Below are positions 20,398 through 63,788 of a stretch of DNA of 64,000 nt, piece after piece (positions within the stretch are counted from its first letter, which is position 1; each line of letters opens with the position of its first letter). Under the pieces are notes generated by a model. The model saw only the letters and a program-made list of their open reading frames with translations. It was not told the origin of the DNA and made no database searches. Both the position numbers and the translations under genes were made by a program. Origin of the DNA: a virus (lineage: Duplodnaviria; Caudoviricetes); IMG/VR virus record IMGVR_UViG_3300048011_000285, positions 7,113-71,112 of that record; one strand, written 5' to 3'.

Positions 20398-21618
20398 CTA
20401 CTTAGTCGTCCAATATTCTTCCCACTCTGGGAAGTAATCAAATACACGCTTTCCAAAGATTTCATCTAATCTATCAGTGTATCTACAAAAATTATCCCAT
20501 TCATCTTGATTTCGTTCTTTCGCAGATAGCATCGCTACTGTGAAATCTCCTACCTCATGAGCTGCATGTAGTTCATCATCTGGTAGTGTTGCTACAAAAT
20601 CATTCCATTCTTGCAAATATCTGTCTTTTAATTCTTGTGGTAAGTTAATTGGGTTTAACATATCAGGTCGTAATACTTCACACATACTGTATTTGTTAGG
20701 GGTCGAGAACGTCTTGAAGTCATTGTATATTTCAATTAAACGTGCGCTTTGCATATTAGATACTGTAATTACAGGGTTAATAGATGCTTGCGGTAGTCCT
20801 TCTTTAAGAGATAGAATGTTCTTAATAACTCTATCCCAATCACCGCCTTCTCTAAAGTAATTATAAAAAGATGCAGAACCATCGATACTGAACTTTAGAC
20901 TAATACTATTGTATGGTTTCAGAATATCAATAACATCATACCCTTTCCACTTGCCTGCAATAGAACCGTTACTAGTTGTAATAAGATTAATCTTATGTGC
21001 ATGAGGTGCAAACTTAATTAAACATTCATAAAATTCACGTTGAAAGAAAGGTTCACCACCGGTGATTTCTAGTTCTAAGAATTCTCCATCATCTAATTTT
21101 TCAATATATGGGATCATTGTATCTAAATCTAAGAACTGTGCATAACTCGTATCATGCTCTAAATGATTTATATCAAATGTTTTTAAATCAGGATTATTAC
21201 GTACAGTCTTTGTCCACAATGTACTGTATTCTGCACTACAATGTCTACATGCATAATTGCATACATTACTAAATCTAAACTCTACACGATGTAGCTTGTT
21301 CATCTTACCAGTAACTGAATCAACATTATCTATATACCAAGTATCTGGTTTATCGCTTAACTTAATACGATTACGATAACTAGTCGCGCCTTTGTCCTCC
21401 ATGTGCTTACAGTCATTGCATTGTGGTAATGGCCACTCACCATTACGCAACATTAATCGTTGTCTGTTAAGTTCTGGATCATTCATTACATCTTCAAACG
21501 TTTTATGTTTCTCATACGTGCCTTCAACAGCACGATAGCACATGTCAGTTCTGTTATGTTTAAAATTTAACCCTGCCATACCCATATGACATGACAATGG
21601 TTCTTTTTTCTGCGACAT
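20398..21618 (-). CDS. Radical SAM protein with N-terminal Twitch-like domain
   Basis: CNYACRHC, ITGGEPF, SIDG; N-terminal C..C..CNDC. Confidence 0.88.
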   Translation of the reverse strand: MSQKKEPLSCHMGMAGLNFKHNRTDMCYRAVEGTYEKHKTFEDVMNDPELNRQRLMLRNGEWPLPQCNDCKHMEDKGATSYRNRIKLSDKPDTWYIDNVDSVTGKMNKLHRVEFRFSNVCNYACRHCSAEYSTLWTKTVRNNPDLKTFDINHLEHDTSYAQFLDLDTMIPYIEKLDDGEFLELEITGGEPFFQREFYECLIKFAPHAHKINLITTSNGSIAGKWKGYDVIDILKPYNSISLKFSIDGSASFYNYFREGGDWDRVIKNILSLKEGLPQASINPVITVSNMQSARLIEIYNDFKTFSTPNKYSMCEVLRPDMLNPINLPQELKDRYLQEWNDFVATLPDDELHAAHEVGDFTVAMLSAKERNQDEWDNFCRYTDRLDEIFGKRVFDYFPEWEEYWTTK

Positions 21619-22406: not shown

Positions 22407-23669
22407 ATGACTGATAGAGGAACTAAATGTAAATACTTCTGGAACCACGTTGCACTGTTCAACGGGAAAACTGCTACCCCATGTTGTAGATATGACAGTA
22501 GTACTAAGAATGGCAAGACCCCCACTGTTGACATGAAAAAGCCATTTACTACGTTTACAGAATCTATACATTCACAAGAATGGGAAACTCTACGTGACAA
22601 TGCTGAAAAGGGAATAAAAGAACCGGGGTGTTGGAAATGTTATGCAGATGAAGAAAAAGGAAACGATTCTTTACGTCTGGTAGCAAACAGAATGTGGGAA
22701 GATGAACCTGTTGAACCGAAACTTCGGTATCTTGAAATAAATCTAGGAAATTTCTGCAATCTAGCATGTAACATTTGTTGTTCTGATAACAGTAATCTTT
22801 GGTATAAAGATGATAAAGAACTGAGTAAAACACCAGAATATCGTAGAGGAACATACCAACCAGACCACGAAAAAGGCATCAGTCTAAATTATGATGATTA
22901 TAAGAATGTAAAACTAATTAAGTTTGTTGGCGGTGAACCGATGATTCATCCAAAGTTTATAACATTATTAGACTTCTTAATCGAAAATGAATTACATAAC
23001 ACAATAGAGATACAAGTATTCACTAACGCAAGTTGGATGCCAAAAGAAAAAGTAATCTCACGTTTGAAAAAGTTCGCAGTCTCAACTATCAGTTTAAGTG
23101 TAGATGGTATAGGACAGGTAAACGACTACTCTCGTTGGCCTAGTAAATGGACAGTTGTTCATGAATCAGTAAAAGAGTGGATCAAAACATCACACGAAAA
23201 TGATAACTTCTTTGTAAGATGGGAGCCTACTATATCCATTTACAACTCTAATCATATCCCTGCAATGGTATGTTGGTGGATAGAAACCACTATGTCAGTT
23301 ACCGGGCTTCCAATGGAAGATGCGCTATACGATCCTCAATCGGACGATATTAATATTATCTTCAATAATGTACTTTGGCCATTGTACATGAAGCCCAACT
23401 TATTGCCTACTAGTGACCGGGAATGTGAAAGAATTGATAACGCTATGTCTAAGATATACAATCGCCATATAGATGTTTCAAGAGACTTTTCTAAACTTAT
23501 GTTACGCAAGCTAGAGCAGAGATTAGAACAAGCAAAAAGGTTTATTTCACCTGATACGGATAAAGAAAGTCTAGATACATTCCTCAAGTTCACAAATGAT
23601 TTGGATAAATTGAGAAATAATAACTTTGCTGAACAACTTCCCATGTTATTTTCTGCATTAAAAACTTGA
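22407..23669 (+). CDS. Radical SAM protein with N-terminal Twitch domain
   Basis: CKYFW..PCC..GCWKC, then CNLACNIC, VGGEP, SVDG. Confidence 0.88.
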   Translation: MTDRGTKCKYFWNHVALFNGKTATPCCRYDSSTKNGKTPTVDMKKPFTTFTESIHSQEWETLRDNAEKGIKEPGCWKCYADEEKGNDSLRLVANRMWEDEPVEPKLRYLEINLGNFCNLACNICCSDNSNLWYKDDKELSKTPEYRRGTYQPDHEKGISLNYDDYKNVKLIKFVGGEPMIHPKFITLLDFLIENELHNTIEIQVFTNASWMPKEKVISRLKKFAVSTISLSVDGIGQVNDYSRWPSKWTVVHESVKEWIKTSHENDNFFVRWEPTISIYNSNHIPAMVCWWIETTMSVTGLPMEDALYDPQSDDINIIFNNVLWPLYMKPNLLPTSDRECERIDNAMSKIYNRHIDVSRDFSKLMLRKLEQRLEQAKRFISPDTDKESLDTFLKFTNDLDKLRNNNFAEQLPMLFSALKT

Positions 23670-23706
23670 CAAACTAGACGAATCACACTACAGTAATTAA
23701 GTAATC
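23666..23706 (+). promoter_or_regulatory. Repeated early promoter, copy 1
   Basis: TTGACA-17(CGAATCA)-TACAGT-AATTAAGTAATCA. Confidence 0.75.
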
Positions 23707-23724
23707 AAAAAGAGGAACTTAATT

Positions 23725-23862
23725 ATGTATACTGTTGAATATGGCTACTACAACTATCCCAAAAAGACAAAAGAATTCAAAACATATGAAAGCGCAAAGA
23801 AGTTCTTCTATTATATTGGAAAGCGTAACGGTGTAAAGAAAGTAAATCTAACTGTTCGATAA
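23725..23862 (+). CDS. Small early hypothetical protein (45 aa, not in ORF track)
   Basis: GAGG RBS; MYTVEYGYYNYPKKTKEFKTYESAKKFF...; has its own promoter. Confidence 0.65.
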   Translation: MYTVEYGYYNYPKKTKEFKTYESAKKFFYYIGKRNGVKKVNLTVR

Positions 23863-23865
23863 AAC

Positions 23866-23906
23866 TTGACAAATACACAAACCATGCTATATTAATTAAG
23901 TAATCA
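23866..23906 (+). promoter_or_regulatory. Repeated early promoter, copy 2
   Basis: TTGACA-16-TATATT-AATTAAGTAATCA. Confidence 0.75.
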
Positions 23907-23923: not shown

Positions 23924-24112
23924 ATGTTTGACAATTTTTACAACGATATGATCAACTTCACTAATGAAAATGAAAACAAGAACCCAGACGGATCTGTTAA
24001 CTGGAACTTTGTTGATGCTGATATGTTTGAGAAATATCAAGTCATTCTAGATGGTGAAACATACTCTGAATACTTTAACAAAGCCGCTGATATTGTCGAA
24101 AGTGCTGTTTAA
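23924..24112 (+). CDS. Small early hypothetical protein
   Basis: 62 aa with NWNFVDAD motif; has its own promoter. Confidence 0.65.
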   Translation: MFDNFYNDMINFTNENENKNPDGSVNWNFVDADMFEKYQVILDGETYSEYFNKAADIVESAV

Positions 24113-24116
24113 AAAC

Positions 24117-24158
24117 TTGACAAATCTCGCGAATCACGCTATAGTAATTAAGTAATCA
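24117..24158 (+). promoter_or_regulatory. Repeated early promoter, copy 3
   Basis: TTGACA-17(CGAATCA)-TATAGT-AATTAAGTAATCA. Confidence 0.75.
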
Positions 24159-24174
24159 AACAAAGGAATACAAT

Positions 24175-25305
24175 ATGTCTGCAAAAGTTTCAACACACGA
24201 TATGGATGTTCGTCTAGTTCGCCCGAGTGATATTCGAACAGAAATTAACTACGCTATGAATCGTAAGCGTCCGGTCTTCATCTGGGGTCCCCCCGGTATC
24301 GGTAAATCTGAGATTGTTGATTCAATCACACAAGAGCGTTCAGGTTACATGATTGACATGCGGCTTGCTCTTATGGAACCCACTGACTTGCGTGGTATCC
24401 CAGTACCGAATATGAATACAGGCTTGATGGAATGGCTTCCGCCTGCTGACTTGCCTACTCAAGAACTTGCTGATCAATTCGAATGTGTTGTACTATTTCT
24501 TGATGAAATGAATCAAGCACCACAGTCTGTACAAGCTGCTGCGTATCAGCTAATTCTTAATCGTCGGTTGGGTAACTACAAACTTCCTGATAATGTTCTA
24601 ATCGTTGCCGCAGGCAATCGTGAAAGTGATCGTGGCGTTGCGTATCGTATGCCCAGTCCGCTTGCTAATCGTTTCGTTCACCTTGAAATGACAACTGACT
24701 TTGAAGATTGGCAGACTTGGGCTTTGCAAAACAATATAGATGCTGAGGTTGTGGGCTACGTTACTGCAAACAAAATGGATCTAATGAACTTTGATCCTCG
24801 CACTGCATCACGTGCTTTTGCTACTCCTCGTTCATGGACGTTTGTGTCACAAATGCTTCCGATGGAAGGTGAGCAAATCTCAGATAGTCGCTTGCACGAT
24901 TTGATTGCAGGTACTGTTGGTGATGGTATCGCTACTAAATTCATGGCGCACCGTGCAATCTCAGGCAAACTTCCTAATCCAACAGATATCTTGAATGGCA
25001 CTGTTAAAACATTGGGTAAAGAAGGTAGTGAAATCTCTGCGATGTTCTCACTGACTGCTTCACTTTGCTACGAACTGCGTGACTTTGTTGATCGTAATGG
25101 CAAGGACAAAATGGACGAGTTGTACAAAATGGCTGACAACTTCTTCCGTTTCATGATGGATAACTTCGAAACAGAAATGACCGTACTTGGTGGTCGTACC
25201 GCACTGAAAGTTTACAAACTCCCACTTGAGCCGCGTAAAGTTCCTTGCATCGAGGAGTTCTTTAAGAAGTATGGTAAACTAATTATCGAGGCACATAACG
25301 CTTAA
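24175..25305 (+). CDS. MoxR-like AAA+ ATPase
   Basis: Walker A GPPGIGKS, Walker B LFLDE, AAGNR, LANRF, TPRSW. Confidence 0.92.
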   Translation: MSAKVSTHDMDVRLVRPSDIRTEINYAMNRKRPVFIWGPPGIGKSEIVDSITQERSGYMIDMRLALMEPTDLRGIPVPNMNTGLMEWLPPADLPTQELADQFECVVLFLDEMNQAPQSVQAAAYQLILNRRLGNYKLPDNVLIVAAGNRESDRGVAYRMPSPLANRFVHLEMTTDFEDWQTWALQNNIDAEVVGYVTANKMDLMNFDPRTASRAFATPRSWTFVSQMLPMEGEQISDSRLHDLIAGTVGDGIATKFMAHRAISGKLPNPTDILNGTVKTLGKEGSEISAMFSLTASLCYELRDFVDRNGKDKMDELYKMADNFFRFMMDNFETEMTVLGGRTALKVYKLPLEPRKVPCIEEFFKKYGKLIIEAHNA

Positions 25306-25328
25306 TTGCAGACTAAGCGTTAGTACTG

Positions 25329-25369
25329 GAGGGAGGAGTATTGACTTCTCCCTCTTTTTATAGTATAAT
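25329..25369 (+). terminator. Rho-independent terminator overlapping a sigma70 promoter
   Basis: GAGGGAGGAGT-attg-ACTTCTCCCTC-TTTTT; TTGACT(25341)-17-TATAAT(25364). Confidence 0.75.
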
Positions 25370-25376
25370 AAGAATA

Positions 25377-26744
25377 ATGATATATCAAACATTTAAACAA
25401 ACTGCAAAAAGATTTCCAAATAAGGATGCACTTATTTGCGGTGACAAAACATACACATATTCAGAACTAGCGACTAGTGTTGATAACTTGATTGCTGTAC
25501 TTAGTACGGCATTTATGCCAAATGAGCGTGTACTATTTGCGAGTGAACGTTGGCATAACTATGTGAGAATGGTATTAGCATGTGATGCTTTAGGTGTCAC
25601 ATTTATGCCAACGTACTATGATTTACCCAAAGCAGTTATCGATGATATATCAAAAGCAAGCAAGCCGGACCATATCATTCTAAATGAAAATGATGCTATT
25701 AATCTTAAACCGCATAATAAGGGATTAGTTTGCGTTAAGGGAAAAGAATACGTTTACACTGTTCTATTCACTAGCGGTACTACAGGAGCGCCTAAGGCTG
25801 TCGCACATAGTAACAAGGCGTGTTATGATGCTTGTATTCAAAACATTGACATATTCAACATGAGTACAGACGATGTTATTTTAGCTCAACTCCCGCCGCC
25901 GACAGTAGCAGGATTATATCTATTCCCACTACCAGCACTTATGGTAGGTGCTACAGTTGTCATGGAAGCATTTAATCCGAGGCGCTTCGCAGAAATAAAT
26001 CTAACATATAAACCAACTGTTGGTATTATTGTTCCTGCTATGATTGTTGCTATGAATAGAGTGCGTAGTTGGCATGAACTTGATATGTCACATTGGCGTG
26101 AACTAAGTGTCGGTAGTACAATTATCCCAGAAGAAATGTTAAACATGTTATTTGACAAGGGTGTTCCAGTCATACGTGATTTATACGGATGCACTGAAAC
26201 TCATGTACCTCCGTTTACATATCTAATCGAACCAGATACTCAACACAAGCTACAATTAGAGTGTACTCCAAACTATCAATACAAACTTGATAGATACGGA
26301 GTTATGTGGATCAAAGGATCTCCCGTAATGATGTATTATCTTAATGATGATGCAAAGTTTGACGAGAATGGATATTGGTGCACCGGTGATGTATTTGAAC
26401 GCAGATACAATAAACTATTCTATAAATCACGGCAGAAAGATTTGATTAAAGTGAATAGTTATAATGTATCTCCAGTATCAATTGAAAATGCAATCATGGT
26501 ATTCCCAGATATAGAGGAAGTATGTGTGACGTTTCGAAGCAGGGAAATGTTGGGAGAAGTTGAGATCGTAGCATTGGTAAAGGTAGAAAAAGAGATAAAT
26601 ATAAGTGAACTACAATTATCTATCAAAGATAAATTATTCCCTTATGAAATCCCCAAAGAAATAATCATTGTTGATGAACCACTGACCAGGAATCAAATGG
26701 GGAAAATTCAACGGGAAGCTAACAGAGAGAAATTTGTAACATGA
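25377..26744 (+). CDS. AMP-dependent acyl-CoA/acyl-AMP ligase (ANL superfamily)
   Basis: FTSGTTGAPK, YGCTE, TGD, RQKDLIK, GKI. Confidence 0.9.
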   Translation: MIYQTFKQTAKRFPNKDALICGDKTYTYSELATSVDNLIAVLSTAFMPNERVLFASERWHNYVRMVLACDALGVTFMPTYYDLPKAVIDDISKASKPDHIILNENDAINLKPHNKGLVCVKGKEYVYTVLFTSGTTGAPKAVAHSNKACYDACIQNIDIFNMSTDDVILAQLPPPTVAGLYLFPLPALMVGATVVMEAFNPRRFAEINLTYKPTVGIIVPAMIVAMNRVRSWHELDMSHWRELSVGSTIIPEEMLNMLFDKGVPVIRDLYGCTETHVPPFTYLIEPDTQHKLQLECTPNYQYKLDRYGVMWIKGSPVMMYYLNDDAKFDENGYWCTGDVFERRYNKLFYKSRQKDLIKVNSYNVSPVSIENAIMVFPDIEEVCVTFRSREMLGEVEIVALVKVEKEINISELQLSIKDKLFPYEIPKEIIIVDEPLTRNQMGKIQREANREKFVT

Positions 26745-28438
26745 AATCACAGGTAAAAAAGATTATTATTTTAGGTGGTGGAGCCGCCGGATGGTTTACT
26801 GCTGGTTATCTCAAAACAAAAAATCCTGAAATTGATATTACCCTTATTGAGAGCAAGAAGATCGGTATCATTGGAGTTGGAGAATCTACAATCCCACAGT
26901 TAGGTGATTTCTTTGCAGAAATGGGTATCGAAGAACGTGATTGGATGTCCAGTACAAATTCACTATATAAACTAGGTAATAAATTTGTTGGCTGGAACAT
27001 TGAAGGTAAACGTCACCACGTATCAAATCATTGGTGGTGTTCTAAGTTTGATGAACAGTACTTTACATTTTCTTTTGCTATGCCAGAGAACCAACTAACA
27101 CGTTCATATTATCATCAAATCAAAACAGACGATTACTTCAACAATTCTAAAGGCGATCCGGGAGTAGATGATAAATGGAATGACTATTGGTTACACCTTG
27201 AACGTCAAGGTCGTAGAAACTGGTGGGAAATGTCAGAGGATATGTGCGAACAAACCTTCCTGATGGACCACAATAAAGCGCCATTTGATATGGATGACAA
27301 TCAACTAGTAGGTGATTGGCAAGCAAAGACATATCACGTAGATGCAGAACGGTTTCCAGAAGTAGTACGTGATAGAGTTGCAATACCAAAAGGTGTTAAA
27401 CACATTTGGGGGCATGTTGCTGATATTGTAAAATCAGAAGATGGATACATTGAAAAACTTGTACTAGAAGATGGCTCAGAGCATGAAGCGGACTTGTTCT
27501 GCGATGCTACAGGCTTTAACCGTATCCTGACAGGTACAATGGACAACGGTTGGCACGACTACGAGCATATCTTTACACGTGATGCTATCGTGGCGCCAGT
27601 TAAGTATAAAGACGTTAAAACAGAAATGCGTCCGTATACACAGTCGTATGCACAAGATGAAGGGTGGAATTTCATCATCACTCTATACAATCGTATGGGG
27701 TCAGGTTATATTTTTGATCGTACAGAAATTTCACCAGAAGACGCTATGGTGAAGTTTAAAAAGTATTGGGAAGGGCACGAGTTTATCAAAGAGCCACGAC
27801 ACATTTCTTGGGAGTCCGGTCGTATGGAAACTCCTTGGAATAAGAACGTTGTTGGTATCGGTATGGCAGGAGCGTTTGTTGAGCCAATGGAAGCCAACTC
27901 ATTATACGTAGCACAGGCATGTATTCAGTTAACTAACCGTATTATCAATCGTGCGAAAGAAGAAAATGCTATTATTACACCATCACAAATTCACGCATAT
28001 AACAAAAATATGAGTAAACTAGAAGACGGTATTGCTGACTTTGTTGCGTATCACTTTACACTGTCCGACCGAGAAGATACACCGTTCTGGCGTAAACAAA
28101 AACAATATGGTATTAACCATAATCACAAAGAAGCGTGTTGGGAACATTACCGTCGTCCTGTGAACTATGTAGGTAACGGCGTATACCCAGACTTTATGTG
28201 GGCCATGCTTGCTGTGTATATGAACAAGTTTGATGATAGCGTAAAACTAAACACCATCAAACCTGAACTAGTAGAAAAAGCAAATATGACTTGGGACTTC
28301 ATTCATAAGTCAAGTAAAGAGAATGGTCGTTACGCACCACACGCATATGATTGGCATCGTAAATTTTTATTCGACGGCAAATCACACGAAAAAGTATTGG
28401 AGGAAGCACTTGCTAAAATATCTAGAAACATTGTTTGA
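26741..28438 (+). CDS. Flavin-dependent tryptophan-halogenase-family protein
   Basis: GGGAAG, GVGESTIP, YKLGNKF (catalytic Lys position), DATGF, FVEPMEAN. Confidence 0.88.
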   Translation: MKSQVKKIIILGGGAAGWFTAGYLKTKNPEIDITLIESKKIGIIGVGESTIPQLGDFFAEMGIEERDWMSSTNSLYKLGNKFVGWNIEGKRHHVSNHWWCSKFDEQYFTFSFAMPENQLTRSYYHQIKTDDYFNNSKGDPGVDDKWNDYWLHLERQGRRNWWEMSEDMCEQTFLMDHNKAPFDMDDNQLVGDWQAKTYHVDAERFPEVVRDRVAIPKGVKHIWGHVADIVKSEDGYIEKLVLEDGSEHEADLFCDATGFNRILTGTMDNGWHDYEHIFTRDAIVAPVKYKDVKTEMRPYTQSYAQDEGWNFIITLYNRMGSGYIFDRTEISPEDAMVKFKKYWEGHEFIKEPRHISWESGRMETPWNKNVVGIGMAGAFVEPMEANSLYVAQACIQLTNRIINRAKEENAIITPSQIHAYNKNMSKLEDGIADFVAYHFTLSDREDTPFWRKQKQYGINHNHKEACWEHYRRPVNYVGNGVYPDFMWAMLAVYMNKFDDSVKLNTIKPELVEKANMTWDFIHKSSKENGRYAPHAYDWHRKFLFDGKSHEKVLEEALAKISRNIV

Positions 28439-29210
28439 TAAAATATCATACGAGAGAAGAATGCATATTCAGTGGTCGTTTAATGCTATTGTAACTGCAA
28501 TTGCGGTCCCATACTGTATATATACAGAACAATATGCTATTCTGGGATGGGGATTTTTGTGGGCATATCTAGTAATGTGTATCGGTGCAAATGCAGGATT
28601 CCATAGATGGGCATCGCATCATAGCTGGAAACCAAGTGAACCAATTAAATGGGTTATGATGACAATGTTTATGTTTGGATCTCCGGGATCCCCACTAGTG
28701 ACTGTTTTATTCCACAGATATCATCATAAACATAGTGACCATGAAGACGATCCGCATTCACCACATGTAATTGGTTGGTTTAGAGGTGCTACAGGTCGCT
28801 TCCAAAAGTCAGGCGGATATCTATCTTCTGGCAGAGATATGTTTAAAGAGCCAAGTGTAGTATTCTATCACAGACACTACTGGAAGTTCCAAGCCGTTAT
28901 ATATCTGTCTGCATTATTAATTGGTGGTCCTCTATTTTTTGCAATCTTTATCTGTTTCAGTGGTTTCTACAATGCAACTATTGCAGGACATATTTTAGAT
29001 GGGGTTCTATCGCATTATAAGTGGTTAGGTTATCGTTGGTTTGAAACTAAAGATCAGTCGAATAATAATCCTATCTTTGCGTGGTTGAGCGGTGGTGAAG
29101 CATGGCACAATAATCATCATGCAAGGCCCGGTAGATGGTACTTTGGACATAAGTGGTGGGAATTTGATCCTGCTGGTTTTCTAATCTGGGCGGTGTTAAA
29201 ACGTATTTAA
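28410..29210 (+). CDS. Membrane acyl-CoA/acyl-lipid desaturase (Delta9-like); start uncertain
   Basis: His boxes HRWASH, HRYHH, HNNHH; DPHSP; WWEFD. Confidence 0.9.
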   Translation: MLKYLETLFDKISYERRMHIQWSFNAIVTAIAVPYCIYTEQYAILGWGFLWAYLVMCIGANAGFHRWASHHSWKPSEPIKWVMMTMFMFGSPGSPLVTVLFHRYHHKHSDHEDDPHSPHVIGWFRGATGRFQKSGGYLSSGRDMFKEPSVVFYHRHYWKFQAVIYLSALLIGGPLFFAIFICFSGFYNATIAGHILDGVLSHYKWLGYRWFETKDQSNNNPIFAWLSGGEAWHNNHHARPGRWYFGHKWWEFDPAGFLIWAVLKRI

Positions 29211-29810
29211 ATGTTACTTAAAAATTTTACAGGTGCAGACAAAATAGAGTTTTCTTTACATCAAGTAGATGAAAGCAATATAGTAGAATTCAAAGAATTC
29301 CTCGTTAAATGTGGCGAAGACGGCGGTCCTAATAATTCATCATTAAAAGCTATTAAGTTTTGTAAATGGGGATCAGAGGAAGCGTGGTGGTTCGTAAAAC
29401 ATAAAGATACTATTGTATCTATGTGCGGTGCGCATTATCTTCCTCATATATCTCCAAAATGCTATATGATAGCGTATCGTGTATATACTCTTAAAGCATG
29501 GAGAGACACCGCATCATCTACTAAAGACCATAAAATGCTTAATGAATTTCATCACGGTGCAGTACAACCGTTTGCAGTAGAATGGTGTTTATCACGTGGT
29601 GCCGACACAATTGTTACTACGGTGAATACTGAGAAGAACCTAGAACAAGATCCCAACGGATTAGATTACAAGTTTTCCAGAGTAGCAAGAATCGTATTTC
29701 CACGTGGAGGGAAATATACATTGCTACATAAAGACTTTCTGTTATATAACAAATATCAGGATGTATGGAAGCTGAACTACAAAGACTTTAGAACAATGGA
29801 ACCCCTATGA
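29211..29810 (+). CDS. Hypothetical protein, possible GNAT-fold acyltransferase
   Basis: Beta-strand pattern WWFVK..IVSMCG..YRVYTLKAWR resembles the GNAT core. Confidence 0.4.
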   Translation: MLLKNFTGADKIEFSLHQVDESNIVEFKEFLVKCGEDGGPNNSSLKAIKFCKWGSEEAWWFVKHKDTIVSMCGAHYLPHISPKCYMIAYRVYTLKAWRDTASSTKDHKMLNEFHHGAVQPFAVEWCLSRGADTIVTTVNTEKNLEQDPNGLDYKFSRVARIVFPRGGKYTLLHKDFLLYNKYQDVWKLNYKDFRTMEPL

Positions 29811-30958
29811 CTGTTTATATTGAAAACATATCCGCTTTTACACCGTTTGGCAATTTAGAACAAACCTGGAAATCTATTATCAATAATAAAATTGCGTATG
29901 GTCCTATAACTAAATTCGATCCAAATGCAAGTCGTTATACTAGAAGTAAAGTTGCAGGAGAGTTTCACTTCAATGCAGAAGAATATCCGATTATAACAGA
30001 AGCAGAACGTGATAGACTACCAGAGCATATGCAGTGGGCATTAGCATTATCAAGTGACTTGATTGGCGATAGAGAGCTACCAAGTGAAAGAACAAGTGTT
30101 ATTGTATCTCCGGGATTTTCCATGTACTTAGAAAGTCTAAGGGCAAACAGAGAAAATACAGACAATAGCTATACATTCTGTCCTAACATGATTGCACACA
30201 ATATCAATATCAAATATGGGTACACAGGACCTAGTACAATGACCATGAGTGCATGTAGTACAGGCATATACAGTATTATTCTAGGGTGTATGCTTATTGA
30301 AACAGGACAAGCAGATTATGTTATTGCTGGGTCAGTTGACCAATGTATCAGCGAAGATGCATTTAAACAGATGGGCAAATTACGTGCATTATCTACGAAG
30401 TATAATAGTAATCCCACTGTAGCAAGTAGACCTTGGGATAAAAAACGTGATGGTCTAGTTCTGAGTGAAGGCGGGGCGCTATTTTTGTTAACTAAAGAAA
30501 AAACAGAAAACACACTATGTGAAATAGAAAAGTATGTAATGACAAACGATGCGTATCAAGTTGTTGCGCCGCATCCTGAGGGTAAACATATTGAAAGATG
30601 TATGTCACAATGCATCGACAGTAAGCCAGATTTAATTAATGCACACGCAACATCCACACCTATGGGCGATGTTGTAGAGTTAGATGCAATTAATAGATTA
30701 GGTATGAAAGATGTCTACATAACTGCAAATAAATCACAACTTGGACATATGATGGGCGCTGCTGGTGCAGTAGAGACAGCAATAAGTGCCATGAGTTTAG
30801 TTAATAACACTATAACACCATCACTAAATATTGATATACTAGAAGATAGATATAAACCAAAGTATGTGACTACTGCAACAAAACATGGCATAAATTCTGT
30901 TCTATGTAATAGCTTTGGATTTGGTGGCACTAATGCAAGTATACTATTAACAAAATGA
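29807..30958 (+). CDS. fabF: Beta-ketoacyl-ACP synthase II
   Basis: Catalytic C-H-H: SACST, AHATST, GHMMGAAG; RDGLVLSEG; NSFGFGGTN. Confidence 0.9.
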   Translation: MTVYIENISAFTPFGNLEQTWKSIINNKIAYGPITKFDPNASRYTRSKVAGEFHFNAEEYPIITEAERDRLPEHMQWALALSSDLIGDRELPSERTSVIVSPGFSMYLESLRANRENTDNSYTFCPNMIAHNINIKYGYTGPSTMTMSACSTGIYSIILGCMLIETGQADYVIAGSVDQCISEDAFKQMGKLRALSTKYNSNPTVASRPWDKKRDGLVLSEGGALFLLTKEKTENTLCEIEKYVMTNDAYQVVAPHPEGKHIERCMSQCIDSKPDLINAHATSTPMGDVVELDAINRLGMKDVYITANKSQLGHMMGAAGAVETAISAMSLVNNTITPSLNIDILEDRYKPKYVTTATKHGINSVLCNSFGFGGTNASILLTK

Positions 30959-31353
30959 CATTTCAAGATTTATTTAAAAACAACCCTAACATATGGATGC
31001 CAATAGCAGACATGTTAGACAATGTTTTAACATCAGGGATAAACGATAGATTTACACGCGCTGAACGTGAATACATGTTTGCACACTTTTCAAAAGAAAA
31101 TAGTTGCGACTTTTGCTATGAACATCATATAGATTTCGCATATGATTTAGGTTATAACAATAGTATTACAGTCAAAGACTTGATGGACGAAGACGCATTA
31201 GAAAATATATTTTGGATCAAAAATATTGCACTGTTAGTCAATACTGCGATAAAAGAGTATGATATAAAACAAATTAATTCAGAAAATAAAAAACTGAAGA
31301 ATACAACTATAAAAGAATACGGTTATAACTATAAAAAGAATATACGGAGTTAA
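30955..31353 (+). CDS. AhpD/carboxymuconolactone-decarboxylase-like protein
   Basis: RE..F..FS..NSCDFCYEHH (CxxCxxxH). Confidence 0.6.
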   Translation: MTFQDLFKNNPNIWMPIADMLDNVLTSGINDRFTRAEREYMFAHFSKENSCDFCYEHHIDFAYDLGYNNSITVKDLMDEDALENIFWIKNIALLVNTAIKEYDIKQINSENKKLKNTTIKEYGYNYKKNIRS

Positions 31354-31355
31354 AA

Positions 31356-32081
31356 ATGAAAAACATAGGCATCGATAACTTAAATGAAGTTATAGAAAAT
31401 CTAATTTATTTACCTCTCAATATCAGTAATCCACCTGAAGGATGCATTGACGGGATAGAAGAAATAACAGATGACATGATGAAGTGGGACGAATTCAGAT
31501 CCTGTAACCTTATCCCCCTTGCTATCGACTACAGAGAAAAAGATGTCATTGAATGGGTGCCAAAATTTATTGATAAATTTCCAAAACTAAAGACTTGGCT
31601 AGAACAAGAAGTTTTTACTAAGGTAGGTTTTGGTAGAACACTGATAATCGTTACAGACCCAGATGAAACAAATGCTCCCCATATAGATGCGGCGCGGGAT
31701 ACATTCGTAGATATATTAAATCATAAACTGCGATATGTATTACAAGGAAACGTAAGTGACTTAGTTTTCATTTCTAAGGATAATACGACTGTTATCCCAG
31801 AAATCGACAAACCTTATATTATGAATGGTAAGTGGCCACATATGATGCACAATACATACGATAAAAGAAAATACACATTAGCTATTGGTGCACCTTGGGA
31901 GCCAAGCATTGACGATGAACAATATAGAAACCTAATAACAGATGCTTATAGTAAATTTAATAAAAATTATATTGGGTCAACTGGCATTGAGCTACCAGAA
32001 AACTGGAAGGAAATGTTTGAGGACTATGATAAAAATAAATCAAACCATGTCGATGCCAAAGATTTTATTGAAAAAACTTGA
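31356..32081 (+). CDS. Fe(II)/2OG-type DSBH oxygenase-like protein
   Basis: PHID...PHMMHN...RKY (HxD...H...R). Confidence 0.55.
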   Translation: MKNIGIDNLNEVIENLIYLPLNISNPPEGCIDGIEEITDDMMKWDEFRSCNLIPLAIDYREKDVIEWVPKFIDKFPKLKTWLEQEVFTKVGFGRTLIIVTDPDETNAPHIDAARDTFVDILNHKLRYVLQGNVSDLVFISKDNTTVIPEIDKPYIMNGKWPHMMHNTYDKRKYTLAIGAPWEPSIDDEQYRNLITDAYSKFNKNYIGSTGIELPENWKEMFEDYDKNKSNHVDAKDFIEKT

Positions 32082-32105
32082 CAAAATCTATAACTATGCT
32101 ATACT
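32078..32105 (+). promoter_or_regulatory. Sigma70-type promoter
   Basis: TTGACA-16-TATACT with extended TG. Confidence 0.6.
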
Positions 32106-32137
32106 AGTATAGTAGTTGGAAATAAAGGACGAATCAT

Positions 32138-32578
32138 ATGGAAAATGAAGAACTAGATGAATTAATAAAAACTTATATTTACGAAAGTCCGGACAAAGAA
32201 GTTTCAACATCTGATAGTTGGGTAGATACATCTGATTATCATATTGACACAGTAGATAATACAATAGATTTATCTGGTATTCTGACAAGTAGTAATACCG
32301 GTACTATTACCGGTAATAGTACCGGTACTATTACCCTTAATTCAAACCATATTACAGCAGATACATTTGAAGATTTTAATGATATAAGTTTAGACGTTAA
32401 TGGCAAAACACGAAAAATTTCAGAGTTGTTTACTATTGTAGATGCAATTGAGAAACGTCTTGGTGTCTTACAGCCAGATCCGAAACTATTAGAAAAATAC
32501 GAAGTACTTCAAGGATTGTATGAACAATACAAAGCGGCAGAAGCAATGCTATATGAAGATGATACAGAAGAAGAATGA
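32138..32578 (+). CDS. Conserved phage hypothetical protein
   Basis: Low-complexity T/S region then IEKRLGVL.P..LLEKY..L..LYEQYK. Confidence 0.65.
   Translation: MENEELDELIKTYIYESPDKEVSTSDSWVDTSDYHIDTVDNTIDLSGILTSSNTGTITGNSTGTITLNSNHITADTFEDFNDISLDVNGKTRKISELFTIVDAIEKRLGVLQPDPKLLEKYEVLQGLYEQYKAAEAMLYEDDTEEE
32296..32335. repeat. Inverted triplication / overlapping perfect palindromes
   Basis: GGTACTATTACC-GGTAATAGTACC-GGTACTATTACC; 32 bp perfect palindrome at 32296-32327. Confidence 0.9.
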
Positions 32579-32706
32579 TACCTGAATTCGAAATAGTTGA
32601 TAACTGGGACGAAATGTTTGAGGACTATGAAAAGGTAATACATACAGCTATATCTGATTATTGGAAAAAGATGCTCCAAAAGAGTTTTAAACACTTGACA
32701 AACTGA
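32575..32706 (+). CDS. Small ORF (43 aa), possible remnant paralogous to the 3' end of 31356..32081
   Basis: DNWDEMFEDYEK vs ENWKEMFEDYDK; 20 bp identical DNA. Confidence 0.4.
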   Translation: MIPEFEIVDNWDEMFEDYEKVIHTAISDYWKKMLQKSFKHLTN

Positions 32707-32723
32707 AACGCAGATGCTATATT
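32695..32723 (+). promoter_or_regulatory. Sigma70-type promoter
   Basis: TTGACA-17-TATATT with extended TG. Confidence 0.7.
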
Positions 32724-32755
32724 ATTAGAGTAAGTTAGACAAAAAGGCGAATCAT

Positions 32756-34093
32756 ATGCAAATCGAACCTAAGAAAATTGTAACAGAAGACGATTTTAAC
32801 TCTGTGCTAGATGATCTACTCAAAGAAAATGGTATCGAGGTTGATGAAAATTCAGAAGAGCCTGTAGTATTCGAATACACTGATCAAGAAGTTAAAGAAA
32901 TGATTGTATCAGGTCGTGTTCGCATGTTGATTAAGCATCCGTTTTTCGGTACTCTCGCTACACGACTGAAACTAGTCGAAGCTGAGTGGTGTCCTACTGC
33001 CGCAGTTGATGGTAAACACTTCTATTATAACTGTGATTTCTTTCGCACACTAACTAGTGAAGAAATTGACTTTGTTGTAGGCCATGAAGTATTTCATTGT
33101 GTATATGAACACTGTGGTGAAAATGGTCGTCTGATGGATTATAAAGATGAAAATCGTGATCCTAAGCTATGGAATATTGCTGCTGATTATAAAGTTAATC
33201 AAGGTTGTGTAGAAGCTAAAATCGGTACAATGCCTAAGATGGCATTGTTTGATCGTAAGTATTACAAATCATACACTGAAGAGATTTATGCTGATCTATT
33301 TCAACAGAAAAAAGATGGGAAAGACTTTAGCGGCACTGAAACGCTTGATGAACATATGTTCGGAGATGGTGAAGGTTCTGATAAAGACGGCAAGAATGAT
33401 CCTACTGGTCGTAAAGCACCTATCAAAATTTCTAAGGAAGAAGCAAAAGCTATCAAGGATCAGATGAAACAAGCTGTTCTGCAAGCTGCACAATCATCGG
33501 GTGCAGGCAATCTGCCGGGTGATATCAAACGTATCATCAAAGATATGACAGAACCAAAGATGGATTGGCGTGAGCATTTGAACCTAGCAGTTCAATCATC
33601 ACTCAAATCTGACTTCACATGGATGCGCCAATCTCGCAAGTCACGTTCACTTGGTATCTATCTACCGGGGACTGACAACGACTATCAAGTTGACGCTGCG
33701 ATTGGTATTGATGTTTCGGGCTCTATCTCACACGATATGATACGTGATTTTATGGGAGAAATCTCAGGCATCATGGATCAGTTTCAAGATTTTCGTTTGC
33801 GTGTATGGACTTTCGATACTCAAGTGTATACAGAATCATACAAAGAATTCACCCCTATGAATGCTGATGAAATCAAAGATTATGAAATCATTGGTTGTGG
33901 CGGCACTGATTTTGAATGTAACTACAACTTCATGGAAGAAAACGATATTGTTCCTGACAAATTCATTATGTTTACAGATGGTTATCCGTTTGGTTCATGG
34001 GGCAATGAAGCATACTGTGATTCACTATTCGTAATTCATGGATCAAATCATATCATCCCACCGTTCGGTGACCATACATACTACTCTAACTAA
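32756..34093 (+). CDS. DUF2201-like metallopeptidase plus C-terminal vWA domain (MoxR partner)
   Basis: HEVFH (HExxH), WNIAAD, MIDAS DVSGS, GGTDF, FTDGY. Confidence 0.88.
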   Translation: MQIEPKKIVTEDDFNSVLDDLLKENGIEVDENSEEPVVFEYTDQEVKEMIVSGRVRMLIKHPFFGTLATRLKLVEAEWCPTAAVDGKHFYYNCDFFRTLTSEEIDFVVGHEVFHCVYEHCGENGRLMDYKDENRDPKLWNIAADYKVNQGCVEAKIGTMPKMALFDRKYYKSYTEEIYADLFQQKKDGKDFSGTETLDEHMFGDGEGSDKDGKNDPTGRKAPIKISKEEAKAIKDQMKQAVLQAAQSSGAGNLPGDIKRIIKDMTEPKMDWREHLNLAVQSSLKSDFTWMRQSRKSRSLGIYLPGTDNDYQVDAAIGIDVSGSISHDMIRDFMGEISGIMDQFQDFRLRVWTFDTQVYTESYKEFTPMNADEIKDYEIIGCGGTDFECNYNFMEENDIVPDKFIMFTDGYPFGSWGNEAYCDSLFVIHGSNHIIPPFGDHTYYSN

Positions 34094-35918: not shown

Positions 35919-36235
35919 TGGAATTTGATAGAGACGGTGAGTTTGATAGACTAATGGAAGAAATCTTCCCTATGAGTATCCCAGCACAGTTTGTTAAGTC
36001 AATCATTGTTAAGATGAAAAATGGTCAAGACATTGAGCTAACTGGAGATGAACTACTGCATCCACTGCCGATGGCAGAGAATATGGGGTGGGATAAACTT
36101 GCATCACACTTCGAACAAATTGATGATATCGAAGTACAAATTGATGTAGATGGTATCAAAGAAAGTGTAGTTACAAACGTACAAACTATTCTTTCAAATC
36201 ATTTCAATGATGAATCGGGGAAAACAATTGGTTAG
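35918..36235 (+). CDS. Hypothetical protein
   Basis: 105 aa acidic ORF, translationally coupled. Confidence 0.6.
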   Translation: MEFDRDGEFDRLMEEIFPMSIPAQFVKSIIVKMKNGQDIELTGDELLHPLPMAENMGWDKLASHFEQIDDIEVQIDVDGIKESVVTNVQTILSNHFNDESGKTIG

Positions 36236-36743
36236 TATGATTTTTGCCTGTGATAAAGCAGGGGGCATTGGTTTTAAAAACGGTCTTCCTTGGCCTCATA
36301 TATCAGAAGATTTACAACATTTTAAACATATAACTGAAGACAACGTAGTAGTTATGGGTAGCAATACTTGGAACAGTCTTGGTGGTCTAGCACCACTTAA
36401 AGGTCGTATTAACTATGTGATTACTGCGAATGACTTGTCAAATTTCACAGGAGCTTTTGACTGCTATAACTATACACAGTACTCAATGGAAAACATTATT
36501 ACTGCAATTGATTTTAGGCATCCAGGTAAGGAAACTATTATCATTGGCGGTAAGAAAATTTATGATGAAGCATACAAATATTGTAGTACAATATACATGA
36601 CAAGGATTATGGATACATATAAATGTGATACAGTAGTAGATGTTGATATGTATCTAGATAATTTTGCATGTCGTTCTACACGTGCCGAGATAGGTAATCA
36701 GCATAAACCATCCATTTCAATTGAACGTTGGGAAAGAACATGA
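36228..36743 (+). CDS. folA: Dihydrofolate reductase
   Basis: GIG..NGLPW..SEDL.HFK.IT, VMG..TW.S, PLKGR, IGG. Confidence 0.92.
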   Translation: MVSMIFACDKAGGIGFKNGLPWPHISEDLQHFKHITEDNVVVMGSNTWNSLGGLAPLKGRINYVITANDLSNFTGAFDCYNYTQYSMENIITAIDFRHPGKETIIIGGKKIYDEAYKYCSTIYMTRIMDTYKCDTVVDVDMYLDNFACRSTRAEIGNQHKPSISIERWERT

Positions 36744-39844: not shown

Positions 39845-39869
39845 TTTTATCTCTTTATTAAGTACATAC

Positions 39870-47089: not shown

Positions 47090-47120
47090 ATTAACTCCAA
47101 TACTTGTATTATATACGTAT

Positions 47121-56443: not shown

Positions 56444-56472
56444 ATTATAACAGATTAATCGTCTGTTGTAAA
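56444..56472 (-). promoter_or_regulatory. Sigma70-type promoter for the GT-repeat gene
   Basis: TTTACA-17-TATAAT on the minus strand. Confidence 0.55.
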
Positions 56473-59631: not shown

Positions 59632-60552
59632 GTGAACACAAAAATATTAAACTATTATGAAGTTCTTCCTGAGGACAATACATTTGTTGACATTATGGCA
59701 GACATAACTCATAAATGCAACATGACATGTAAGAACTGTTATATACCTAACCGCGATGTCCCAGACATGGATTTAGAAAAATTTAAAGATTTCATGTCAC
59801 GGATTGCCGGTAGATGTATGATTAGAATTGTTGGAGCAGAACCAACAATGAATCCGCTGTGTGAAGAGTACATTAAGGCAGTCTTTGAGAATGGACATAG
59901 ATGTATTCTTCTGACAAACGGTTTAAGGTTATCACATAAAAATTACGTAAATAAATTACACAATGCTGGACTAAGACATATATACCTAAGTCTTAACGGA
60001 GTTGACAATGATGATTGGTACGAGTCTATAGATGAAATGAGATGTGCTAATAAAAAAATAAAAGCATTACAAAATATCCGTGAGCGTAAATTTATATTAG
60101 ATACAGGAACTATTATTGTTCCGGATGTGAATGAAGATGCGCCAGGTGCGTTATTAGAATTGTTTGACAGAGAAAATATTAATAATGCTCTCATGAGAAT
60201 TAAGAATGTTGGTCAATTAGGTAGATTTCAAACAGAAGCCGACGACAATGTAAAAATGGATCAACTAGTTAAACTATGTTCAGAACAAATGAACATCAGC
60301 GAAGACTATATAAATAGTTTCAGAGATAAAAAATTATACGGAATATACGAAGAAAAGAATTCTATACTATTTCCTTTACGTGAGGGTAATAAAATATTAA
60401 ACAGAGGCAGATGGGTTAAGATTACAAATTGGGATACAGACAACGAAATCGGTATACCAGATCCTAACTCGCCAAGGCGTGGGCGCATTACAAAAGATTT
60501 TATGCTTGCACCAACATACGAACACATTAAATTAAACGAAGGTGGATACTAA
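59632..60552 (+). CDS. Radical SAM protein (MoaA-like core, no SPASM)
   Basis: CNMTCKNC, VGAEPT, LTNG, SLNG. Confidence 0.88.
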   Translation: MNTKILNYYEVLPEDNTFVDIMADITHKCNMTCKNCYIPNRDVPDMDLEKFKDFMSRIAGRCMIRIVGAEPTMNPLCEEYIKAVFENGHRCILLTNGLRLSHKNYVNKLHNAGLRHIYLSLNGVDNDDWYESIDEMRCANKKIKALQNIRERKFILDTGTIIVPDVNEDAPGALLELFDRENINNALMRIKNVGQLGRFQTEADDNVKMDQLVKLCSEQMNISEDYINSFRDKKLYGIYEEKNSILFPLREGNKILNRGRWVKITNWDTDNEIGIPDPNSPRRGRITKDFMLAPTYEHIKLNEGGY

Positions 60553-60554
60553 AA

Positions 60555-60791
60555 ATGAGTAAGACTAGAGAAACACTTAAAAAAATTGCTATGGACAGGG
60601 TCGATATCGAATTGACAGATGAAATTATTAATTCCGGTACTTCCTTTAAGGATCTAGGGGTAGATTCTTTGGATTCTATTGAAATTATTGTTTCAATAGA
60701 GGATGAATTAGATATTGAATTATCAGATGAAACGCTAGACGCTGTAACTAATATCAAAGAATTAGCAGACTATTTGTCAGAATTTGACTGA
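60555..60791 (+). CDS. acpP: Acyl carrier protein
   Basis: 78 aa acidic; DLGVDSLD phosphopantetheine site; IEDELDIEL.DE. Confidence 0.92.
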   Translation: MSKTRETLKKIAMDRVDIELTDEIINSGTSFKDLGVDSLDSIEIIVSIEDELDIELSDETLDAVTNIKELADYLSEFD

Positions 60792-63740: not shown

Positions 63741-63747
63741 TATTTTC

Positions 63748-63788
63748 TTGACAAATCTGCGAATCATGCTATATTAATTAAGTAATCA
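63748..63788 (+). promoter_or_regulatory. Repeated early promoter, copy 4
   Basis: TTGACA-16(CGAATCA)-TATATT-AATTAAGTAATCA. Confidence 0.75.

Follow-up and report, generated by a model that had tools for sequence, protein, structure and literature searches.

A candidate acyl-modifying operon of five gene types conserved in a lineage of marine jumbo phages

Bacterial alkyne and polyyne cassettes of the jamABC(D), cay, pgn and cepacin types bring together an acid-activating ligase, one to three PF00487 desaturases of the SCD type and an acyl carrier protein (ACP), often with an alpha/beta hydrolase and a downstream ketosynthase (KS) or polyketide synthase (PKS). Xanthomonadin and aryl-polyene pathways combine a ligase, an ACP, a FabF-like KS and an enzyme of the Trp-halogenase family; they lack desaturases and need a ketoreductase (KR), a dehydratase (DH) and a KS/chain-length factor pair for iterative polyene formation. 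In the jamaicamide pathway, JamD is a flavin halogenase that brominates a terminal alkyne (PMC12645471, in part). Earlier work has recorded phage halogenases, desaturases and ACPs as single genes; 20 of 153 cyanophages carry a halogenase-like gene, lone ACP genes being tabulated for cyanophages too (PMC10452541, in part), and ACP modules have been found in freshwater flavobacterial jumbophages (PMC13573597, in part). Biosynthetic gene clusters are described as extremely rare in virion-derived genomes and 99.3% of those in prophages as bacteriocins, so that phage specialized metabolism is so far known almost entirely from prophage bacteriocins, the exceptions being a partial cluster resembling nonribosomal peptide synthetases, ectoine, a type 3 PKS and homoserine lactone (Dragos et al., 10.1101/2020.10.01.322628, in part). 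The present analysis concerns a 64,000-nt stretch of phage DNA (the window; bases 7113-71112 of the 71,112-bp virus record IMGVR_UViG_3300048011_000285), in which genes for a ligase, a flavin-dependent halogenase, a desaturase, a protein of predicted GNAT fold (g4) and a FabF-like KS follow one another on the plus strand.

These five core genes and two that follow them (g6 and g7) are separated by overlaps or gaps of 0-22 nt (Table 1), and the seven tightly coupled genes that an earlier sequence-only reading had described are all present. A profile scan of IMG/VR with an alignment of g4 returned 13 related loci on 13 contigs from different metagenome records. Genes for the MoxR-type ATPase that flanks the cluster on its left, the ligase, the halogenase, g4 and at least one desaturase were present in all 13 loci; the KS gene, a VWA protein gene and an HNH gene follow in 11, the other two contigs ending earlier. 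The order MoxR-ligase-halogenase-[desaturase]-g4-[desaturase]-KS-VWA is kept throughout. Six loci (L006-L011) encode identical proteins at these genes, leaving 7-8 distinct sequences per gene. Since g6 was found in only one of the 13 loci and g7 in none, and since the KS gene directly abuts the VWA gene in four (L003, L005, L012, and L015), the conserved unit consists of five gene types; the co-conservation in relatives on which the earlier reading had made itself depend is thus seen for the syntenic core but not for g6 and g7. With dS saturated, rough dN/dS estimates for g4 and for the ligase, desaturase, and KS genes (window versus L003), and likewise for g6 (versus L004), fell between 0.04 and 0.17, similar to the 0.10 of the MoxR gene, whose product is 83-99% identical across the related loci. 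In Sinorhizobium phage Phosso, a homologue of the window VWA protein (44% identity) is encoded directly 3' of the AAA-ATPase gene with nothing between the two, indicating that the cluster is an insertion into a conserved gene pair. The best explanation for this arrangement is that the five core genes form one translationally coupled operon, inserted between the MoxR and VWA genes in this phage lineage, and the core genes probably serve one coupled pathway. A megablast search of window positions 24000-34000 against 50,697 phage records gave no match.

The record is estimated by CheckV to cover about 17% of a genome, the contig hence being a fragment. Its phage origin, asserted from the outset, is borne out by a T4-type DNA polymerase (phrog_262, 1.7e-196) whose nearest isolate homologues are those of Phosso (49% identity; 469-kb genome) and Agrobacterium phage Atu_ph07 (45%), followed by those of Xanthomonas, Yersinia, and Cronobacter jumbo phages. 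For the MoxR-type ATPase, the identity is 50% with the protein of Pseudomonas phage PA5oct and 42% with its Phosso counterpart. Both proteins being closest to those of jumbo phages, the carrier is taken to be a jumbo phage. One of the 13 related loci belongs to a complete genome of 342,607 bp with direct terminal repeats (G001; CheckV completeness 100%). Near-identical DNA (at least half of the sampled words) was detected in 18 public runs from about 14 studies, labeled seawater or marine apart from one study of freshwater metagenomes, four rows possibly representing the source sample itself, and homologues of the KS clade occur on contigs of up to 338 kb, some of them from Tara Oceans. The cluster is thus a fixed part of a marine jumbo phage lineage that is widely distributed.

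The identities first proposed for the ligase, halogenase, desaturase, and FabF-like KS with its Cys-His-His triad were upheld by matches to Pfam families and to sequences in the PDB. The ligase matches AMP-binding (PF00501, 5.3e-41, 141.1 bits against a cut-off of 29.9) and AMP-binding_C; its best PDB match is FadD13 (7e-25), and feruloyl-CoA and 4-coumarate-CoA ligases also match (~1e-22). The best NCBIfam matches are of the FACS (long-chain fatty-acid-CoA ligase) and MenE types, every one below its cut-off. With the A3 motif TSGTTGxPKAV and the A10 lysine (GK) kept in all eight unique sequences, the protein is assigned by sequence to the ANL superfamily of adenylating enzymes. The halogenase matches Trp_halogenase (PF04820, 6.5e-90, 302.6 bits against a cut-off of 21) and phrog_2928 (1.5e-93), and its closest PDB matches include Thal (9.8e-59), VirX1 (6qgm, 1.3e-54), PyrH, RebH, and PrnA. 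Aligned to Thal, the flavin motif (GGGxxGW), the catalytic lysine (Lys77, within YKLGNKF, equivalent to K79), and the conserved glutamate (in EPME) are kept in nine of nine sequences. The position of the WxWxIP motif reads GW-N/T/A-F-I/V-I-T/S/P, its second Trp being replaced by Phe in all nine and its Pro present in two. The gene is single-copy per genome, and no confirmed relative was found in the genomes of 185,579 prokaryote species by means of short exact peptide patterns, a search that excludes close relatives only. Two contigs from an RNA-library run (X20) lie inside the halogenase gene with 0-1 differences; DNA carry-over being possible and most of the cluster being uncovered, they are not taken as a sign of expression.

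The desaturase matches FA_desaturase (PF00487, 5.5e-10, 39.9 bits against a cut-off of 29.7) and aligns to mouse SCD1 (4ymk, 3.3e-9), with the His boxes HRWASH, HRYHH, and HNNHH all present, features by which it qualifies as a membrane di-iron enzyme of the SCD/Delta9 (SCD/DesC) type. In most relatives g4 is bracketed by two paralogues, whereas only one desaturase, of another subtype, is present in the window and in L003; L004 has one after the KS gene. Across the lineage, the phage enzymes form four deep subtypes, with up to three divergent copies per genome. The KS contains both ketoacyl-synt domains (N-terminal 1.9e-27, C-terminal 1.5e-20) and aligns end to end with FabF (4jga, 3e-56), and its ACSTG, H(A/G)TST, KSQxGH lysine, and GFGGTN elements are kept in nine of nine sequences. 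Its TIGR03150 score of 251.7 bits, against an equivalog cut-off of 493.75, marks it as FabF-like rather than as an equivalog. Among the matches listed, 95 clusters at 59-91% identity are followed directly by cellular FabF at 32-36%, one fragment excepted. In a tblastn search of phage records, the KS found only FabF-like genes of 27-40% identity, in unrelated or contaminated records, and these were set aside.

No Pfam, PHROG, or NCBIfam family matches g4 even at E <= 5, and a PDB profile search gave nothing usable. The possibility, raised from the sequence, that it is a GNAT protein agrees with its AlphaFold model (pLDDT 89.3), which is predicted to adopt the GNAT fold (Foldseek best E 8.9e-7); the search produced 313 PDB matches at E <= 1e-3, the top listed being GNAT-type acyl- and acetyltransferases, and VIA gave Z-scores of 10-11.2 over 130-163 residues, with many rows tied. 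A low-confidence insertion (pLDDT 69) follows strand 4 of the model, and the score of a predicted complex of g4 with ACP (0.01) is uninformative either way. Nine homologue clusters were found among 5.8 billion proteins and 116 remote profile matches in 1.84 billion representatives, and no close relative was found in the same 185,579 species (one genome each), searched in the same manner; the family appears to be restricted to phages. That the KS clade is discrete and that g4 has no close relative in those genomes both speak for a dedicated function and against a recent copy from a host. One remote g4 match (P0212, 578 aa), among ten scanned with Pfam, joins an ANL N-terminal domain to a g4-like C-terminal domain, which provides a modest Rosetta-stone link between ligase and GNAT-fold protein.

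The DSL serine of the window ACP (D37-S38-L39) is invariant in four phage ACPs. In the complete relative there are three ACPs (at ~34, ~115, and ~245 kb), one AcpS-type phosphopantetheinyl transferase (PPTase; 137-aa open reading frame, ORF; PF01648, 3.4e-19), one KS, one halogenase, and one full-length ANL ligase together with a 239-aa ANL-like ORF. The window ACP is 60% identical to the ACP at ~245 kb and 51% to that at ~115 kb. That the gene at 60555 encodes a cognate ACP holds in so far as it is a genuine ACP; it sits in a separate module with a radical SAM enzyme and hydrolase-like proteins, and its orthologue at ~245 kb lies ~160 kb from the cluster of the complete relative (~82-88 kb). 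The radical SAM enzyme of this module faintly resembles TrsS, MoaA, and Tes, with scores below threshold, and its orthologue adjoins the ACP in the complete relative. Neither of the two paralogues that follow the ACP (d1 and d2) matches a Pfam family (E <= 5) or a PDB sequence; Atlas leads and the aligned Ser, Asp, and His residues suggest that they are possibly alpha/beta-hydrolase-like. A homologue of an ACP-neighbor gene stands directly 3' of the KS gene in L014 and L002, as it does 3' of the ACP in the complete relative, and is one genomic link between the ACP module and the cluster. The sequence-only reading had seen no KR, DH, or PPTase: KR and DH were indeed not found in the complete relative, while the PPTase is encoded by the lineage and hence need not be supplied by the host. 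Near the first ACP of the complete relative are genes for a flavoprotein of the nitroreductase family (PF00881, 2.5e-5) and a MotA/ExbB-like protein, the truncated 239-aa ANL-like ORF being about 10 kb off (L075 7029-7778; G001:C1:43884-44459). This region may be a further carrier-protein module and may hold a candidate flavin reductase for the halogenase.

The closest known logic appears, by gene content and not by orthology, to be that of the jamABC(D) and polyyne cassettes. A tblastn search of plasmids with the desaturase matched 68 records, of which seven were opened; four held solitary lipid desaturases and three held ligase-desaturase-ACP cassettes, so the JamABC-type comparison drawn earlier is apt. 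The cassette of Streptomyces goshikiensis comprises a thioesterase, a fatty acyl-AMP ligase (FAAL), two desaturases, an ACP, a third desaturase, an alpha/beta hydrolase, a rubredoxin, and a cytochrome P450; that of Burkholderia gladioli BSR3 a FAAL, two desaturases, an ACP, a methyltransferase, a PKS, an ACP, a P450, and a hydrolase; and that of Polaromonas JS666 a FAAL, a desaturase, an ACP, a CFA-synthase-like protein, a desaturase, and a KS-domain protein. All three match the core composition of jamABC alkyne and polyyne systems, in which ligase, desaturase, and ACP are co-localized (PMC8406139, in part). The phage locus shares with these systems the acid-activating ligase, the PF00487 desaturases, and an ACP elsewhere in the genome. 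It departs from them in that ligase and desaturase are near each other whereas the ACP is distant, in a short ANL ligase in place of a FAAL, and in desaturases of a separate clade with only 27-32% identity to the cassette enzymes; it also includes, as integral members, a GNAT-fold protein and a FabF-like KS that stands alone, and its carrier is a phage genome. Set against a polyyne core of desaturase triad, thioesterase, and rubredoxin, most phage clusters have two desaturases, a third type lying elsewhere in the complete relative, while the counterpart of the thioesterase is at most a hydrolase-like candidate.

The comparison with xanthomonadin and aryl-polyene pathways, also drawn by the sequence-only reading, fails, for in the complete relative only a single KS was found, and neither FabA/Z nor a short-chain dehydrogenase/reductase (SDR) above cut-off. 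The statement that single halogenases are known in phages is correct; VirX1 and the cyanophage enzymes belong to the same Trp_halogenase family but are lone genes without pathway context, in contrast to the halogenase described here, which is fixed in a five-gene operon and has W-x-F-x-I-[T/S/P] as its second motif. For g4, the acyl-ACP-dependent N-acyl amino acid synthase FeeM (2g0b) is a GNAT-fold match comparable in size (Foldseek rank 48, E 2.9e-5; VIA Z 10.2), and g4 lies in the context of a genome with ligase, KS, and ACP; dozens of ordinary acetyl-CoA N-acetyltransferases score as well as FeeM (Z 10-11), and no sequence family was found for g4. The combination of ligase, halogenase, desaturase, GNAT-fold protein, and KS is unmentioned in Dragos et al. 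(10.1101/2020.10.01.322628, in part), supplementary datasets aside, and no such phage cluster was found described in openly licensed PMC papers and bioRxiv, supplementary files being outside this scope.

We infer from these components a carrier-templated pathway making an unsaturated, possibly halogenated acyl product, and put the probability of this reading, with the steps in the order given here, at about one half. The substrate of the ANL ligase, most likely a fatty acid or another hydrophobic carboxylic acid, would be adenylated and loaded onto a phage ACP or CoA. One or more unsaturations would then be added by the membrane SCD-type desaturase or desaturases, a halogen would be installed by the flavin-dependent halogenase, and the FabF-like KS would add one malonyl-derived C2 unit; with no KR or DH, the extended product would keep its beta-keto group unless host fatty acid synthase (FAS) enzymes act on it. 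The GNAT-fold protein would pass the acyl group to an amine acceptor or else prime the KS in the manner of curacin-type GNAT loading domains. Transfer to a virion protein, a glycan, or a host lipid, which the sequence-only reading proposed, is purely conjectural. The phage would supply the ACPs and the AcpS-type PPTase, and the host malonyl transfer, reduced flavin, and the electron donor of the desaturase. Lineage-specific tailoring or release might come from what follows the KS gene, whether g6, g7, an additional desaturase, or a hydrolase-like gene. In its most specific form, the product would be a beta-keto acyl amide, halogenated and strongly unsaturated (with alkenyl, alkynyl, or polyyne-like groups), built on phage ACPs during infection as a reactive lipid of the JamABCD/polyyne type and used as a diffusible toxin or signal against competing microbes or grazers, or as a covalent lipid tag on a target in host or phage, which we regard as a speculative and quite improbable elaboration.

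Several observations weigh against the carrier-templated pathway. SCD-type enzymes usually act on acyl-CoA or lipids. No ACP lies inside the cluster; the distance to the nearest is 28 kb in the window, and ACPs of the complete relative are 33-160 kb from its cluster. Malonyl-CoA:ACP transacylase (MAT; PF00698), FabA/Z (PF07977), SDR PF13561, Fer2 ferredoxin, and flavin reductase were not found in the complete relative, where PF00106 gave only a sub-threshold 21.4 bits, and rubredoxin was not found in any of five records, the complete one included; much would therefore depend on host enzymes accepting phage intermediates. The ligase, at 455 aa against 572-596, has no likeness to JamA-type FAALs beyond a best match to a cassette FAAL of E 1.6e-5 over 199 residues at 26% identity. 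The WxWxIP motif of the halogenase is degenerate, and its sequence is nearest to tryptophan halogenases that act on free substrates, not to carrier-dependent ones. The GNAT call for g4 comes from its fold, tied with ordinary acetyl-CoA N-acetyltransferases, and the ANL-g4 fusion is a single sequence on one 23-kb contig. Descent of the phage desaturases from polyyne cassettes was considered but does not emerge from the phylogeny: in a tree of 22 sequences, the 12 phage desaturases form one clade (support 95/94) that lies outside, and is not nested among, a mixed group of six cassette and four solo desaturases, authentic JamB not included.

A different view of the same genes is that they are independent auxiliary metabolic genes, the ligase (by scavenging fatty acids), the KS (by elongation in host FAS), and the desaturase (through membrane fluidity) each feeding separately into host lipid metabolism and remodeling the membrane during infection, while the halogenase and GNAT-fold protein are unrelated passengers. 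The FabF-like character and full decarboxylating triad of the KS, the housekeeping SCD/DesC type of the desaturase, and the best, if sub-threshold, family matches of the ligase to long-chain fatty-acid-CoA ligases would all suit such roles; host FAS would be needed anyway, KR, DH, and MAT not having been found, and single halogenases are common in cyanophages. Yet gene order and coupling are invariant in 13 of 13 loci, halogenase and g4 included, the KS is only 32-36% identical to cellular FabF and forms a clade of its own, the phage carries its own ACPs and PPTase, an ANL-g4 fusion exists, and the number of divergent desaturase subtypes, up to three per genome and four in the lineage, is also at odds with a set of unconnected genes, which we therefore think unlikely.

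The similarity of the halogenase to tryptophan 5-, 6-, and 7-halogenases and VirX1 (1e-59 to 1e-54) and its long C-terminal part (565 aa) suit another pathway, in which it would first act on a free aromatic compound (indole, a tryptophan derivative, or a phenolic acid), the ligase would activate the halogenated aryl acid, the KS would extend it once, and the GNAT-fold protein would form an amide, with the desaturases acting on a lipid partner or acceptor. Feruloyl-CoA and 4-coumarate-CoA ligases and MenE-type families among the ligase matches point the same way. The alignment of the halogenase to Thal ends at query residue 471, however, so that the comparison covers only that part of the protein; one or two desaturases, always interleaved, are left without a role, and no gene for a chorismate-derived aryl acid was found among the window ORFs scanned for families (part of all ORFs). 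An aryl starter accordingly appears distinctly unlikely. The last possibility to be weighed is a faulty join of bacterial DNA to a phage contig, or a mis-binned cellular fragment, to which the deposition of one g4 homologue (P0008), on a 166-kb contig, under the label "bacterium" might lend some color. This cellular chimera, which the sequence-only reading had named among the findings that would overturn it, is extremely improbable: the same phage genes flank the cluster in 13 contigs, one of them the 342.6-kb genome with direct terminal repeats, identical or near-identical contigs cross the cluster junctions in independent metagenome runs, the GC content of the block (0.35-0.41) falls within that of the window (0.32-0.41), and no close relative of g4 or the halogenase was found in the 185,579 species genomes. 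The carrier-templated pathway remains the reading that we prefer.

Beyond the KS gene, the loci diverge. This window has g6, g7, and g8, whereas L004 has a desaturase and then g6, L014 the homologue of the ACP-neighbor gene and then a 273-aa ORF, and L013 a 151-aa ORF; Pfam at E <= 5 gave nothing useful for the L014 genes. Such a variable, enzyme-rich tail resembles diversification in biosynthetic clusters. The description of g6 as AhpD-like stands as regards its motif, CxxCxxHH being kept in the sole orthologue found (L004, 78% identical; two of two sequences), and less well as regards its family, for which there are weak leads: an NCBIfam match to TIGR04030 (E 1.2e-3, 19 bits against a cut-off of 233) and Atlas scores of 0.88-0.89 for AhpD/CMD. 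No Pfam (E <= 5) or PDB match was obtained, and at a threshold of E 1e-6 none of the remaining 12 related loci yielded g6; the protein is possibly AhpD/CMD-like. For g7, the predicted fold and an invariant triad agree with the HxD..H oxygenase originally suggested. Its model (pLDDT 91.9) is that of a 2-oxoglutarate/Fe(II) double-stranded beta-helix, with matches to proline hydroxylases, AspH, and PHD2 (E 1e-6 to 1e-4), and H109, D111, and H162 are invariant in 23 homologues, so that the protein is assigned a predicted 2-oxoglutarate/Fe(II)-oxygenase fold with an HxD...H triad. No oxygenase family in Pfam matched, a PDB profile search gave nothing usable, and a C-terminal EF-hand match reached 20.6 bits against a cut-off of 25.4.

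A role for g7 as a member of the pathway was considered and rejected. It is absent from all 13 related loci at E 1e-6, and its family, which occurs in 49 other viral loci, is widespread in viral contigs without ligase or KS (found in none of the 48 loci scored); g7 is therefore treated as accessory. In 17 of the 48 scored loci, one to four paralogous desaturases of the SCD type are encoded no more than a few kb from the g7-type gene (four in L053; the loci include L053, L062, L068-L071, and L074), and the g7-type gene is sometimes near homologues of the genes at window positions 62799-63767 (minus strand), of the cupin gene at 58860, of the radical SAM gene at 22407, or of g8. This suggests a viral oxygenase/desaturase toolkit that recurs independently of the ligase-KS cluster. 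A contig of 9671 nt from run X17, ~97% identical, is contiguous from MoxR through g7, after which position 32075 joins 32693, omitting 617 nt; the missing region (32076-32692) comprises g8 and a promoter-like site.

The claim that the cluster has its own consensus promoter stands as a sequence match, with 11 of 12 consensus positions. Promoter-like sites in the region number 46, against 37 +/- 5.8 in shuffled sequences, which is no clear excess, and the site 5' of the ligase is accordingly regarded as a match and not as a demonstrated function. Its short distance from the ATG would imply a leaderless transcript or a very short leader. Near-consensus sites of the sigma70 type, matching at 10-11 of 12 positions and in several cases bearing an extended -10 TG, stand repeatedly in the gaps 5' of plus-strand genes and would fit transcription by host RNA polymerase. 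Joints in run X12 (24837->32982 and 25176->32987) that might have represented cluster-less relatives have sides of 20-21 letters, below the reliability guide, and were not used.

Table 1. Positions of the cluster, its flanks, and other features discussed, numbered from the first letter of the window
Feature	Positions	Strand	Remarks
Radical SAM region	20398-21618	-	
Radical SAM region	22407-23669	+	
Recurring promoter-like sites	23666-23893, 24117-24145, 25341-25369, 32078-32105, 32695-32723	+	in intergenic gaps
MoxR-type AAA ATPase	24175..25305	+	AAA_5/AAA matches; left flank, outside the pathway
Hairpin and T-run	25328..25355	+	overlaps the promoter-like site
Sigma70-like site, TTGACT-17-TATAAT	25341..25369	+	11/12 consensus; 8 nt 5' of the ligase ATG
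Ligase	25377..26744	+	core gene 1, 455 aa
Halogenase	26741..28438	+	core gene 2, 565 aa; overlaps ligase by 4 nt
Desaturase	28461..29210	+	core gene 3, 249 aa; ORF opens at 28323, likely start at 28461, 22 nt past the halogenase stop
g4 (predicted GNAT fold)	29211..29810	+	core gene 4, 199 aa; abuts desaturase
KS	29807..30958	+	core gene 5, 383 aa; 4-nt overlap with g4
g6	30955..31353	+	variable tail; 4-nt overlap with KS
g7	31356..32081	+	variable tail; 2-nt gap after g6
g8	32138-32578		146-aa Thr/Gly/Asn-rich ORF; no useful Pfam match at E <= 5
DUF2201 metallopeptidase-like/VWA protein	32756..34093	+	right flank, conserved
Radical SAM region	38669-42504	-	
Radical SAM region	45527-50420	-	
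Radical SAM enzyme	59632..60552	+	PF04055, 4.2e-15; directly 5' of the ACP
ACP	60555..60791	+	78 aa; PP-binding 1.4e-13, 51.3 bits against a cut-off of 20.8
d1 and d2 (paralogues)	60791-61792, 61782-62804	+	333 and 340 aa; invariant Ser (HAGSG), Asp, and His

Other parts of the window are rich in enzymes as well. It holds at least ten radical SAM genes, five of them above the cut-off of NCBIfam NF033640 (N-terminal twitch-domain radical SAM). Among these lie minus-strand genes for an Asp/Asn beta-hydroxylase-like protein (44078-44902), a QueC-like protein (44878-45561), and a Nol-like carbamoyltransferase (56455-57987), along with minus-strand genes for a cupin, for a protein with DUF6071, and for one of 1219 aa without a family. 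The radical SAM region resembles another island for modification or biosynthesis, larger than the first, and is syntenic in the complete relative. A homologue of the SbmA/BacA family of inner-membrane transporters (19343-20383, plus strand; PF05992, 6.3e-77) has a 36%-identical counterpart in L001. A eukaryotic-type phosphomannomutase (PF03332, 4.6e-25) and an adjacent pair of dihydrofolate reductase and thymidylate synthase genes (16682-17434 / 36207-37615) are ordinary in large phages.

If a discrete product is made by this cluster, natural-product biosynthesis would be extended to virulent phages, and the lineage would offer new enzymes in the form of a short ANL ligase, four compact desaturase subtypes, a GNAT family, and a minimal stand-alone KS. 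Viral halogenases would, if the pathway is as proposed, gain a native context and substrate. Should the reading of the product as a halogenated acyl amide prove true, a lytic jumbo phage would be a genuine producer of natural products, with a tailoring region that diversifies them.

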